Shown: positions 37,507 to 48,165 of the stretch, one piece after another
Numbering within the stretch: the stretch's first letter is position 1
Layout: every line of letters begins with the position of its first letter
Source: a virus
Lineage: Duplodnaviria; Caudoviricetes
Direction: 5' to 3' (one strand)
DNA length: 64,000 nt
IMG/VR virus record: IMGVR_UViG_3300011242_000002
Location: 128,001 to 192,000 of that record
Made by a program: the position numbers and the translations under genes
Notes under the pieces: generated by a model
What the model saw: only the letters and a program-made list of their open reading frames with translations
What the model was told of the DNA's origin: nothing
The model's database searches: none

Positions 37507-40500
37507 GTGATGAGTTTAACAAATAACTTTAAACACTTCTCTGAGCTGCCCATAGAGACAGAGATAACTAAGCGATTAATGGTGCCGGTGATCCAACGGG
37601 TATCAGAGATCGGCGCAAGCGAAACTGTATATGAAAACGTGCTGGTCCCCGCAATGGGGCTGGCGGCCGGCGTTGCCACCCACGCCTTTGACAGCGTGGC
37701 TGCAATGATGGCGTGTGATGACCTGACCCCCGGTACCGTGGTGTCGACCCGGGGCTACTTTAAACCGCTGGGACACGGTGCGGCCACCTACGACATTTGG
37801 GATTTGGACGCCTACCGTGCCTTGATCAACAACCCGGGCTGGCTACCCGATGGTGAAGAGATCACGGTCAACGGCCTGCGTTACTACGCCGGTGGCGACC
37901 ATATGCTGCGCAACAACTTGGTGGCGATCCTGCGCTTTAACGCATTGTGGGCCGGTCAGCTGGGGCTACCCGATCCGGTAAAGGACGAGGCGGAATACAT
38001 TGCTAAACGCCTGCACCACGATCACGGGATGCAGAAGGCCGTCGATTTTGCCAAGCGCGTGACCAGCGCCGGCGACCGCTCGGCAACCAGCACCAACGGT
38101 ATCGGCACCCACCGCAACATCATGCTGCATATCGAACCGGGCAACTACGTGCTGACCCACACCATCTGGATCCCGGGTTCGGTGCTGCTGGTTGGTGGCT
38201 CCATGTGGGGGACCGGCGGGCGCTACGTTGACTTCATTCCATTGAAGGCCGAACACGGCGGTTCGTTGATCAACTACGTGCGGGGCTACACCTTCATCTG
38301 GAACGGCAACCGCTACTGGCCGGGCACCGAAGAGATCCCGATTGGCGCAACCCCTGCCGAGTCCATTTATTCCGCACCGTATGTCGGTGGGATGAGCGGG
38401 ATTTCCATCAACAACTACGAAACCAGCTACGGCATGACCGACGGGGTAATCGACTACTACAAGCCGAACTACCTCAAAGGTATCAAAGGCTGTATGGTCT
38501 TTGGCGGCGCGATCTTCCACTCCTGTAACGGCGAGCGCGTGTGGATCTTTGCCCACCGCCCCGGCGTGGACTGGCTGGATTACTATACCGACGGCTGGGT
38601 GATCAGGGACTACAAGTGTAACACCCCGTTTGAGAACGAAGAGTACCAGCTCGACTTCAACGGCTCGGGCGACATCATTGATATTGATGGCGTGCAGTTC
38701 CCGGTCACCGTGGAGCTCTCGGACCCGAACGAAATGTGGGCCAAGGGCGAATACCTTAACGGGCCGCCGAAGGGGATCCGTCTGCACAACTGGGCCAGCT
38801 GGGACATCAAGCCACCGGGCGAGGGTGGGTCCAACGAGCAGATCTCCTACGTCGGTGCGGGGATGCGTATCCAGCGCGTGATCAACGGCGTGATCGACAT
38901 CTACGGCTACCGGCAGGTGCAGATCGAAGCCTCGCACTTTGAGTTTGGCCAGATCATCCTTAACCAGGGTTCTGCCTCCGTGGCCGACTGCTACTTCTCG
39001 AAGAACACCAAGATGGCCTACAACTCCATCGAGTGTCGTCCGGGCTTCTACGGCGGCATTGGTGCGGATCTGTCGCTGAAACGCTGTGAGTTCCACCGTG
39101 GTTTTGACGGCAGTCACCTGCCGGTAGAAGACGGCTACTACGACCTGGTGATCAACAACAACTTCACCGTGGTTATTGAAGACTGTTTCCAGGGCTGGGA
39201 TACCGCGGACTCTAACCAGAAGATCGGGATCACCGTCGGGCTCTATAACAAGAGCAACGACAACGTGGTCACCATCACCCCGTTACCGGGCTGGGATCGC
39301 TGGTCAGCGTACCTGTCGCAGGGCTGCACCATCGTGCGTGGTAAGATGTCGGTACAAACACGGGAAACCATGTGGGGTGGTTTCGAAGGGGTGCAGGAGG
39401 TCAACTGTACGCCGTCGAACAACAAGCGCAACTTTGACATGCCGGCTAACACCACCTACTACTACTTTGCCCAGTTCCTGGTAGACCCGGGCGATGATAC
39501 GGTCGCCCCGGACTTCATCCCGCTTGGGCGTAATCAGCGTGAACGCTTCGTGCTGGATGCGCAGGGCAACCCGACCACCGAGCGCTTTGAAGCATCCTGC
39601 TTCGTGAAACCCAACGTGCTGCACGACGACGGAACCAACCCACCGTACGAAAGCTACTTCCGTCCAGTAGCGTATTTTTACGGCGAGGATGAAACACCGG
39701 ACATCTCCACGATTCGTCTCTACCGCGGGACCTCACCGATGCAGTACGATGAGTACGTCGATCTGCCGATGATGAGCCGTGCGGCCATTGACGATTACGG
39801 AACCACGGTGTACGGGCGCAAGTGGAAGCCGAACCCGGTCGCGAAAGACACCAACCCGGATCTGACGCTGCGCAAACGTAACGTGCTGCCGGTAACCGGT
39901 AACGATCTGACCAGCTACACGGTCAAGATGCGTGCGGGTTCACCGTTAGCACTGACCGTCGATCGCGGGACGGATTACTACAACCGTCAAGAACTCGAGT
40001 ACATCGGCACGGGTGGTTGGTCGACCAACGCCGGCACGGCGGTCATTCGTGCATCCAACACCGGGGTGAACGCCGCCGACGAACAGGCCATGGCATCGAT
40101 CTGCATCTTTGACCGTCTGTTTACCACCGACGTTTACGTAAACCTGCCGGTGACCGGTGCACCGAACTGGGACGGCAGTCGGACCCTGAAGTATAAGAAA
40201 GGGGCGCGCTCCGATATTGTTCGCTCTAAAACCACGGCCCCGGAAGACGAGGATGCCACGGTCTACGATCTGATCGTGCAAACGGAGCTGCCGGGTGGGA
40301 TTGTAAAAGAGCTGTACCGCATGCTGCCCGGCGAAACGGTTACGGCCTTTTACGACGAGAAGGACGTGCTGCAGCCGGACGGTAAGACCTACCTGCCGGT
40401 CGGTGAGTGGATCATCGTGCGCGGGACCTTGAGCACCAAGGCCGACTCGGAACACCACTACATCGATGCGGAAGCGGGGGGTTACTACAACCTGCTGCCG

Positions 40501-46610: not shown

Positions 46611-46796
46611 ATGCCAGCCATTCACGTGTCACAGACCATCGCCGATAAGCTGGATGCTAAAATGGTTCAGTTGATCACGGAAGGACAACGCAAGATAAAG
46701 CGCGCAACGATAAATGAACTGGCGATTCAATACGGCATCGATAAGGTCACCCTTGAGCGCGTCATTGCCTACGAATCAAAGCAGGAGTTCGTATGA
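46611..46796 (+). CDS. Possible ribbon-helix-helix DNA-binding protein
   Basis: GAGGTGA RBS; short strand (AIHVS) followed by two helices; 61 aa. Confidence 0.5.
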   Translation: MPAIHVSQTIADKLDAKMVQLITEGQRKIKRATINELAIQYGIDKVTLERVIAYESKQEFV

Positions 46797-47134
46797 AAAC
46801 AATCCCCGATCTGGATTTAGAATTCGCCGCATTAGTTGGTGACTTGTCTGAAGAAATAAATGACTGTTGTTATAATGACGACAGTATTTTGTGTGCAGCA
46901 TTGCACGGGATGTTAAACGAGCAATTGGCGGCGCGTGATAAACGTCACCGTGATTACATTGCGCGACTGTATCCTGATTATCCTGATTTAGACGCTCGTG
47001 TCATTGAATTGATAAAATTGACTGGTGGATGGCCGATGAATTTTGGCGAGCCAGTTACGCCGTTAAAAGAGTTACCTGAAAAGTATTACCTGGAATATTT
47101 CAGGAGCTCGGGTCGAGAAGACTTGCTGCAGTAA
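46793..47134 (+). CDS. Hypothetical protein
   Basis: AGGAG RBS; ATGA overlap. Confidence 0.7.
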   Translation: MKTIPDLDLEFAALVGDLSEEINDCCYNDDSILCAALHGMLNEQLAARDKRHRDYIARLYPDYPDLDARVIELIKLTGGWPMNFGEPVTPLKELPEKYYLEYFRSSGREDLLQ

Positions 47135-47141
47135 GTTAGTA

Positions 47142-47325
47142 TAATTCTGAGATGAATGCTCAACGTTGAGCACCCTTAATAGCAGGATGGCGGCGTGTGT
47201 ATTCGCAAAGTCGTTACACCCCACGGTCACCGCATGGACCGTGGTAATGAGAGACTTGGGACGCAGCTGAAAGTATGCTGGTAAATAGCCGTAACCACGA
47301 CCAACCGCGTGGCATCTCAGAATTA
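47142..47325 (+). ncRNA. Unknown ~185-nt multibranched structured RNA
   Basis: Perfect 13-bp closing stem TAATTCTGAGATG/CATCTCAGAATTA enclosing at least five helices; fills the intergenic gap. Confidence 0.7.
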
Positions 47326-47343
47326 GACAGGGGAATGTAGTAA

Positions 47344-47565
47344 GTGCATACAACAAAAATAAAGTACCATCAAAGAAACGGCAGTGGCTGCTATTCACTG
47401 AATGGCAAACCGTTATCTATTGAGGACGAACAACATTATCAGGTAGAGATGCGCCGCGCCAGGGAACTCTACCACATCCACAAGAAGTTCATCGATGGAC
47501 TCCCACAGTGGATCAAATCACTGGGTAAACGCTTTAACATCAAAGCGCTTACGCAGTACCTTTAA
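47344..47565 (+). CDS. Hypothetical protein
   Basis: GTG start, 73 aa. Confidence 0.5.
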   Translation: MHTTKIKYHQRNGSGCYSLNGKPLSIEDEQHYQVEMRRARELYHIHKKFIDGLPQWIKSLGKRFNIKALTQYL

Positions 47566-47583
47566 CCAAAAGGAGACGATTCT

Positions 47584-48165
47584 ATGGCAACCATCAATTA
47601 CGATGCGATTGCGCAAGAACTCAAACGTGGTCTAATCGACAACGAAAATACAGCAGCGCACCTGTGTATGGATAAGCCCATGCTGCTAAAAGAGCTGTAT
47701 ACCTTAGCATTCGGTGGTCCACGCCAAACGGGGAAAACCAAATGGATGATCGAGCATTTAATTCGTGATCCTGATTCTCGTTTGATCGCACTCAACCTAA
47801 CCATGCGTGAAGCTATCATTCAACAGCTTTCAGCGTATGCAAGGCTTGACGAAAATCGCGAAGGTGATGAACCACGACCAGATGCTATTTGGCACGCAGG
47901 CGGGATCGGCTGGGTGCAGGTGCATAAAGAAACCGCGGAATTAATTCGTAAAGATCCTAGGGTTGTCGAGCAGGCGATGCTTCGAATTATCACGGTGCCG
48001 ATGTTGCGGACCATGATTAATCAAGACACCGTCTTGCCAATCAACATCAGCCAGATCTTTATCGACCAGCGCGTTCAGGCGTTCCAGCTGATCCGCGCTA
48101 GTAAATACTATACGTGGTTGGCCAAAGTTTCTGATAAACCTATTCTGACCTGGCTGATCGACTAA
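47584..48165 (+). CDS. P-loop NTPase-like protein
   Basis: Walker A GGPRQTGKT; Walker B-like QIFID; AAGGAG RBS. Confidence 0.65.
   Translation: MATINYDAIAQELKRGLIDNENTAAHLCMDKPMLLKELYTLAFGGPRQTGKTKWMIEHLIRDPDSRLIALNLTMREAIIQQLSAYARLDENREGDEPRPDAIWHAGGIGWVQVHKETAELIRKDPRVVEQAMLRIITVPMLRTMINQDTVLPINISQIFIDQRVQAFQLIRASKYYTWLAKVSDKPILTWLID

Follow-up and report, generated by a model that had tools for sequence, protein, structure and literature searches.

What kind of element lies between two small genes of a jumbo phage where the ends of a short intergenic stretch are fully complementary to each other? The question is raised by positions 47142-47325 of the window analysed here, a stretch of 64,000 nt taken from a complete virus record of 273,301 bp (IMGVR_UViG_3300011242_000002, bases 128001-192000) that carries direct terminal repeats. 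The strongest inverted repeat of the whole window (arms within 250 nt) brackets this element: TAATTCTGAGATG (47142-47154) is fully complementary over 13 bp to CATCTCAGAATTA (47313-47325), and the perfect closing stem described in a first-pass annotation is present exactly as given there. The same annotation took the element for a functional multi-junction non-coding RNA and not for a terminator, a view that is borne out by the closing stem and four inner helices kept through compensatory changes in 14 other loci. We consider it very likely that a folded RNA structure maintained by selection is real at this position. With moderate confidence we read the element as an independent gene on the + strand for a structured non-coding RNA that acts in trans and belongs to an undescribed jumbo-phage family.

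Folding energies offer a first view of the element. The 201-nt region containing it reaches a predicted minimum free energy of -72.3 kcal/mol, compared with -55.0 +/- 4.4 in dinucleotide shuffles (z -3.97), and 0 of 200 shuffles folded as well. The minus strand of the window copy, taken alone, folds about equally well (z -3.95), so energy by itself gives no strand.

A greater level of detail is offered by homologous loci. At this locus, the nearest cultured relatives of the window genome are two Erwinia phages, pEa_SNUABM_37 and pEa_SNUABM_48 (294 kb), and the Salmonella phage vB_SalM_SA002 (288 kb; unclassified Caudoviricetes, SA002 below). All three were matched in blastn by the element's 3' half, and the whole element could be read in the syntenic intergenic regions of these three cultured phages and of two IMG/VR contigs. 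A covariance model built from five copies (R1) recovered it in 12 of 12 further loci, fetched via homologues of the 193-aa protein encoded downstream, with scores of 122-164 bits. Altogether, 15 copies (14 distinct) were found at the same locus in related phages of ~270-295 kb, the remaining carriers being metagenomic contigs. Each genome that was searched whole holds one copy, the window genome included.

On the alignment of the 15 copies (A6), 98.6% of 574 cells pair under the consensus structure. Covariation among homologues, a check suggested in the first-pass annotation, gave a clear signal: in 12 pairs both partners are substituted, a number that drops to 1-2 once the partners are displaced by 1-3 columns, and the observed covariation score was reached by 0 of 500 shuffles. 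The consensus helices of the 14 distinct sequences contain 70 G-U cells and no A-C cells, which indicates that the RNA corresponds to the + strand. In the short forms described below, folds of the minus strand are weaker, and every neighbouring gene lies on the + strand.

As read from this alignment, the fold is a five-way junction formed by the closing stem P1, the hairpins P2 and P3, a P4 domain that holds P5, and the hairpin P6. Along the window its parts are as follows.

47142-47154, + strand: 5' strand of P1, the 13-bp closing stem; both partners vary in 4 of 13 pairs, with 97% of cells paired (14 distinct sequences).
47155-47156, + strand: linker J1/2, AA, invariant in A6.
47157-47172, + strand: P2 hairpin, 6 bp with a 4-nt loop; 100% paired, one pair changing on both sides and two pairs conserved as G-U.
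47174-47186, + strand: P3 hairpin, 3 bp with the 7-nt loop UAAURGC; 2 of 3 pairs covary (CCU/AGG versus CUG/CAG).
47190-47194, + strand: 5' strand of P4, GCGGC, which closes the inner domain; partner at 47288-47292, the innermost pair being G-C, U-A or C-G depending on the phage.
47195-47244, + strand: variable long-form insertion with hairpins Pa (47197-47219) and Pb (47221-47244); present in 7 of 15 copies.
47245-47261, + strand: joining strand UAAUGAGAGACUUGGGA, conserved in A6, with GACUUGGGA invariant.
47262-47281, + strand: P5 hairpin, CGCAGC/GCTGG, 5 bp and one bulge with the conserved 9-nt loop UGAAAGUAY; both partners vary in 4 of 5 pairs, with 100% of cells paired.
47282-47292, + strand: J5/4 (YRAAUA) and the 3' strand of P4, GCCGU, from the alignment and consensus structure.
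47295-47312, + strand: P6 hairpin, 5 bp with the 8-nt loop AYCAACCG, abutting the 3' strand of P1; found in every single-sequence fold.
47313-47325, + strand: 3' strand of P1, the perfect complement of 47142-47154.

Most of the pairings that the first-pass annotation had read from the single sequence reappear in this structure. Its 16-nt palindrome at 47157-47172 is the P2 hairpin, which is kept in homologues; GTGTA/TACAC (47197-47201/47215-47219) and CCACGGTC/GACCGTGG (47221-47244) form Pa and Pb, and CCACG/CGTGG (47295-47312) forms P6. Three of its inner pairings do not hold up. The split helix GCGT..CCC/GGGACGC, together with AGC/GCT, is specific to the window and gives way to P3 (CCT/AGG) and P5, while ATGGC/GCCGT is in the wrong register, the conserved and covarying helix being GCGGC/GCCGT, that is, the 5-bp P4, in which one pair changes on both sides. 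Two alternative helices of single-sequence minimum-energy folds, CCUGU/AUAGG and UGGG/CCCG, are broken in other lineages, and a mini-helix UAGG/CUUG placed in the joining strand by RNAalifold displays one-sided changes only and was omitted from model R2.

The helices are arranged around the junction in a tight order: P1, AA, P2, C, P3, three bases, the P4 domain, two bases, P6 and then, without a gap, the 3' strand of P1. P6 is probably stacked on P1, as it runs straight into that strand. Its stem is invariant in 14 of 14 distinct sequences and is uninformative for or against pairing.

The copies occur in two sizes, a short form of ~133 nt (8 of 15) and a long form of ~180-200 nt (7 of 15, window included). 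The long form carries 45-65 extra bases directly 3' of the P4 5' strand, which always make two hairpins with sequences unrelated between lineages. What remains is a conserved core of ~125 nt, with a P1 of 11-13 bp among copies. Several unpaired stretches of the core are constant, namely GAUGAAUG (unchanged in all copies of A6), GACUUGGGA, UGAAAGUA, AAUA and ACCACGA, and five diverse copies agree in 38 of the 54 unpaired columns of the core, a pattern that would be as in RNAs with a tertiary fold. In addition, base 5 of the P3 loop (A or G) covaries with the first base of J5/4 (U or C), giving A-U in the window lineage and G-C elsewhere; this is a possible tertiary pair (47181 with 47282 in the window), which rests on one evolutionary event.

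Can the element be assigned to a known class? None of the 4227 covariance models of Rfam 15 matched in the window at gathering thresholds, and a search of 46900-47600 with permissive filters, of the kind the first-pass annotation had named as a check, matched no family even at an expectation value (E) <= 10. A tRNA is rejected, as ARAGORN makes no call in the window or the genome, the Rfam tRNA model is unmatched and the loops are off consensus. In an intrinsic terminator, P1 would be followed by a U-tract; here GACAGGGGAA follows, without one, and a terminator scan gives no site. A retron msr-msd is not supported by any RVT_1 match in the whole 273-kb genome. The fold backed by covariation is a five-way junction and not the rod-like duplex with central bubble of 6S RNA, whose Rfam model is unmatched. 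A homologue of T4 rnaC or rnaD was sought with R1 (cmsearch, filters off) in T4 68000-76000, where nothing rose above noise.

Bacterial Y RNAs of the YrlA type, which act with Ro60/Rsr, share with the element a pairing of their ends in a long stem bearing a branched module, which in Y RNAs is partly tRNA-like. Y RNAs reportedly occur in some phages, a statement attributed to Chen et al. 2014. This identity finds no support either: no TROVE/Ro or RtcB gene is found among the genes of the phage genome, and P1 is an unbroken helix, unlike the bulged Ro-binding helix of Y RNAs.

A coding function on the opposite strand also finds no support. An antisense open reading frame (ORF) of 108 aa (47072-47398) covers the element, is open in 4 of 5 lineages and is interrupted by two stop codons in pEa_SNUABM_48; conserved genes of the + strand are overlapped by it as well. 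Substitutions in its frame are distributed 11/19/13 over codon positions 1/2/3, with no codon-position bias, and the comparison of homologous sequences indicates that the element is non-coding.

As judged from the sequence searches, the RNA family does not extend beyond a single clade of jumbo phages of enterobacteria. More distant phages that share the 193-aa gene belong to Agricanvirus (family Chimalliviridae), Moabitevirus, Wellingtonvirus and Maaswegvirus; covariance-model searches of loci with filters off and of whole records found no copy in Agricanvirus AH06, the Moabitevirus phages Moabite, Totoro, vB_ParM-25 and BUCT660, Klebsiella phage FBKp24, Wellington or pEa_SNUABM_54, the whole-record searches covering all of these but BUCT660. 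DNA-pattern scans covered IMG/VR, JGI metagenomes and 185,579 species genomes. In IMG/VR, an exact 17-mer gave no match, the pattern ACTTGGGA..TGANAGTA was too unspecific (at least 120 stretches), and a 5'-half pattern returned 16 loci, of which two were uncultivated virus genome (UViG) contigs already in the set and 14 were unrelated by inspection and negative with the model. In the metagenomes, 2 of the 80 best loci (of 88 stretches) were real; they lie on ~280-kb contigs, have the same model scores as two contigs of our set (L003/L004) and are probably the same phages. In the species genomes, 0 of the 80 best loci (of 89 stretches, mostly a Streptococcus mitis gene) were real by the model.

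The genes around the element bear on whether it is a gene of its own or a part of its neighbours. In the window these are:

46793-47134, + strand: 113-aa ORF without family match, whose stop codon lies 7 nt before P1.
47344-47565, + strand: 73-aa ORF with a GTG start, beside the RNA in 11 of 15 loci.
47584-48165, + strand: 193-aa small P-loop NTPase with the Walker A motif GGPRQTGKT, the syntenic anchor for finding homologues.

Pfam and PHROGs suggest no function for any neighbour gene. Downstream of the RNA, the next ORF is the 73-aa one in 11 loci, a 62-aa one in two and the 193-aa gene directly in SA002 and L238. A homologue of the 73-aa protein was not found anywhere in the 288 kb of SA002, which nevertheless keeps the RNA. 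Because the next gene varies and SA002 retains the RNA without the 73-aa ORF, the element is probably an independent RNA gene; it shows no dependence on any one downstream gene.

The upstream neighbour varies too. It is a tRNA-Asn in L001 and L237 and an odd tRNA in L242, and in these three relatives P1 begins 3-10 nt after the tRNA 3' end, which places the element in a tRNA cluster. The upstream position is taken by tRNA-like sequences that ARAGORN does not call in L234 and L241, and another closed RNA, a four-way junction with a 10-bp stem, in SA002, L238 and L243. This second RNA was examined in SA002 (L002 2360-2447), where its 10-bp stem encloses three hairpins, one with a T-arm-like loop (z -3.2), draws no tRNA call and ends 2 nt before P1. 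In the window, L239 and L245, the stop codon of an ORF precedes the element. Relatives keep tRNA-Asn and tRNA-Tyr flanking the element, with tRNA-Tyr following the 193-aa gene in most, while a search of the window's whole 273-kb genome with ARAGORN yields no tRNA gene at all. The RNA survives in a phage whose tRNA genes have all been lost and is therefore selected for its own sake.

The 193-aa NTPase is a single domain without Pfam match; a candidate for the Walker B residue is D161, which is invariant and lies in an IFIDG-like strand, and the predicted fold of the protein yields weak, generic matches to RecA-like/DEAD-box domain 1 (E >= 0.02, TM about 0.4). The gene is conserved and adjoins tRNA genes in several jumbo-phage genera. 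As it is also present in genera that lack the RNA, the protein is not a dedicated partner. In AH06 (Agricanvirus, L005 3150-3300) and BUCT660 (Moabitevirus, L006 3380-4000), syntenic gaps of 370-620 nt upstream of this gene contain tRNA-like fragments and apparently non-coding sequence without a model match, and may hold unrelated RNAs in the same position.

The same island in relatives also contains genes for an HNH endonuclease and for Tad2-like and Acb2/Tad1-type proteins. ORFs of the Tad2-like and Acb2/Tad1-hairpin type were identified with Pfam in L242 (2721-2975) and L244 (1-581), 0.3-2.5 kb from the RNA. In L236 (1878-2480), an HNH endonuclease gene splits the tRNA-Asn, of which only the 3' half is left (compare 2477-2552 of the near-identical contig L237), and this insertion looks like a homing event within the tRNA island. 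At a distance from the element, the window contains a second perfect 13-bp inverted repeat (38907-39127, arms 195 nt apart). It lies inside a 1322-aa ORF and its fold reaches a z of -1.5; as a sibling element it was rejected, and it is probably no RNA gene.

How might such an RNA be made and what might it do? For the independent gene that we favour, we infer transcription, processing, stability and action in trans as follows. The RNA would be co-transcribed with the neighbouring tRNA or tRNA-like genes and the downstream ORFs, and host nucleases that mature tRNAs and phage mRNAs would excise it. The P1 clamp of 11-13 bp would protect both RNA ends. Released in this form, the RNA would act in trans, and its invariant unpaired bases (GAUGAAUG, GACUUGGGA, UGAAAGUA, AAUA, ACCACGA) may build up a tertiary pocket as a binding site for a protein or a second RNA.

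It is distinctly doubtful, though conceivable, that the RNA is the agent of a new phage function, either as decoy or inhibitor of a host protein for RNA- or tRNA-directed defence or processing, or as a ribozyme of a new class. The decoy or inhibitor option would fit the contents of the island in relatives, which holds tRNAs, non-decoding tRNA look-alikes and anti-defence genes of the Tad2/Acb2 type.

Several observations weigh against an independent, trans-acting RNA. No partner protein was identified, and the scans revealed neither a promoter nor a terminator belonging to the element. A sigma-70 promoter scan counted no more sites than in shuffles, and TTAGTATAA is no recurrent motif; TATAAT at 47140-47145 was rejected as promoter, as the start would fall inside P1 and the motif is absent from homologues. 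The family is narrow (~5 lineages), and for this reason many covarying cells trace to few evolutionary events. Moreover, in 15 of 15 loci an ORF preceded by a good Shine-Dalgarno sequence starts 12-27 nt past the end of the RNA, and in L244 a terminator-like hairpin just upstream would make the RNA the 5'-terminal part of a transcript.

These last two points are those on which an explanation in cis would build. The element could be part of an mRNA, as a 5' leader that stabilises the following ORF or controls its translation, or as an RNase III-type site that separates the tRNA from the mRNA part. Like riboswitch aptamers, it is located upstream of an ORF, and it combines a P1 joining the ends of a multi-junction with conserved junction bases and one variable peripheral stem. 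We nevertheless regard a cis-acting role as unlikely. The downstream gene is inconstant (73-aa, 62-aa or 193-aa ORF, with no single regulated gene class), and SA002 keeps the RNA without the 73-aa gene. P1 is too long and constant to switch, and no expression platform is visible: neither a U-tract nor anti-Shine-Dalgarno pairing was seen by eye 3' of P1 in the 15 loci, nor was a terminator or any alternative pairing of the P1 3' strand with the ribosome-binding site. For mere end protection by a hairpin, or for cleavage by RNase III, a conserved five-way junction would not be needed.

Another explanation partly overlaps with the independent RNA gene, namely that the element is a highly diverged derivative or mimic of a class II tRNA, handled by tRNA enzymes or acting as decoy for tRNA-directed host factors. 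P1 would then correspond to a lengthened acceptor stem, P2 to the D arm, P3 with its 7-nt loop to the anticodon arm, the P4 domain to an overgrown variable arm and P6 to a T arm stacked on P1. The five-way junction, the arm order and the linkers (2, 1, 3, 2, 0 nt) indeed parallel those of class II tRNAs, and in relatives the element resides in a tRNA island near class II tRNA-Tyr or tRNA-Ser genes, with the Tad2-like and Acb2/Tad1-type hairpin proteins encoded nearby. T4 rnaC, too, has its ends joined in a stem, with a T arm lying directly against the 3' strand of that stem. However, unlike class II tRNAs, the element has a 13-bp closing stem, its P6 loop of 8 nt and P2 loop of 4 nt lack the T- and D-loop consensus, its P3 loop has A instead of U at the position of U33, and no discriminator-CCA end follows P1. 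As already noted, neither ARAGORN nor the Rfam tRNA model (E <= 10) recognizes it. A tRNA origin or mimicry in this sense appears rather improbable.

A ribozyme of an undescribed class, for instance one whose cleavage at the element's edge would release the tRNA before it or the mRNA after it, is very unlikely. The element's many invariant unpaired bases and optional peripheral extension are as in ribozymes, but none of the known ribozyme families is matched at E <= 10, the window, L239 and L245 have no tRNA ahead of the element, and there is no sequence sign of a cleavage site. Finally, that the locus acts as DNA (a repeat resembling a miniature inverted-repeat transposable element, or a protein-binding cruciform) or through its antisense ORF is extremely unlikely: the 13-bp terminal inverted repeats, the minus-strand fold of the window copy and an antisense frame open in most lineages speak for it, whereas the strand-specific G-U cells, the weaker minus-strand folds of short forms, the stops in pEa_SNUABM_48 and the substitution pattern speak against it, and the single copy per genome, constant syntenic position and G-U pairs inside P1 make a transposon-like repeat improbable.

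Among described RNAs, those closest in setting are RNAC (species 1, 139 nt) and RNAD (species 2, 119 nt) of phage T4, which are discrete RNAs with roles that are still unknown (PMC3014915, PMC9697503). They are of similar size to the element, phage-encoded and positioned directly after a tRNA in a tRNA cluster: rnaD and rnaC directly follow tRNA-Arg, in a cluster that also holds a homing endonuclease gene. The single-sequence fold predicted for RNAC resembles the element in that its ends pair, several arms branch off and one hairpin sits right beside the closing stem's 3' strand. In RNAC this hairpin is a canonical T arm (GGUUCGAAUCC), whereas the element has no T arm. The rnaC gene itself (L338 2909-3047) has a fold z of -4.6 and, with its T arm next to the closing stem, looks like a tRNA derivative. 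The phages with RNAC and RNAD are Straboviridae, those with the element phiKZ-like jumbo phages, and there is no homology in sequence or structure. What the T4 RNAs and the element have in common is their setting and overall architecture and not membership of one family.

The element is best classed as a so far undescribed RNA family within a general kind that is already known, the small RNAs of phage tRNA islands. Structured RNAs have rarely been sought in phage genomes, and the best known of them, T4 RNAC and RNAD, still lack an explanation after decades. Present claims are limited by the narrow distribution and the absence of a functional clue. The alignment and covariance model would support a new family of the Rfam type, and the cultured carriers, pEa_SNUABM_37 and pEa_SNUABM_48 on Erwinia amylovora and SA002 on Salmonella, make the function directly testable. 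The finding means that a second phage lineage, unrelated to T4 and with the nucleus-forming Chimalliviridae as its classified relatives, keeps a complex RNA in the same genomic setting. Should the decoy or the new-ribozyme reading be true, the RNA would be the founding member of a new functional class of phage RNA.
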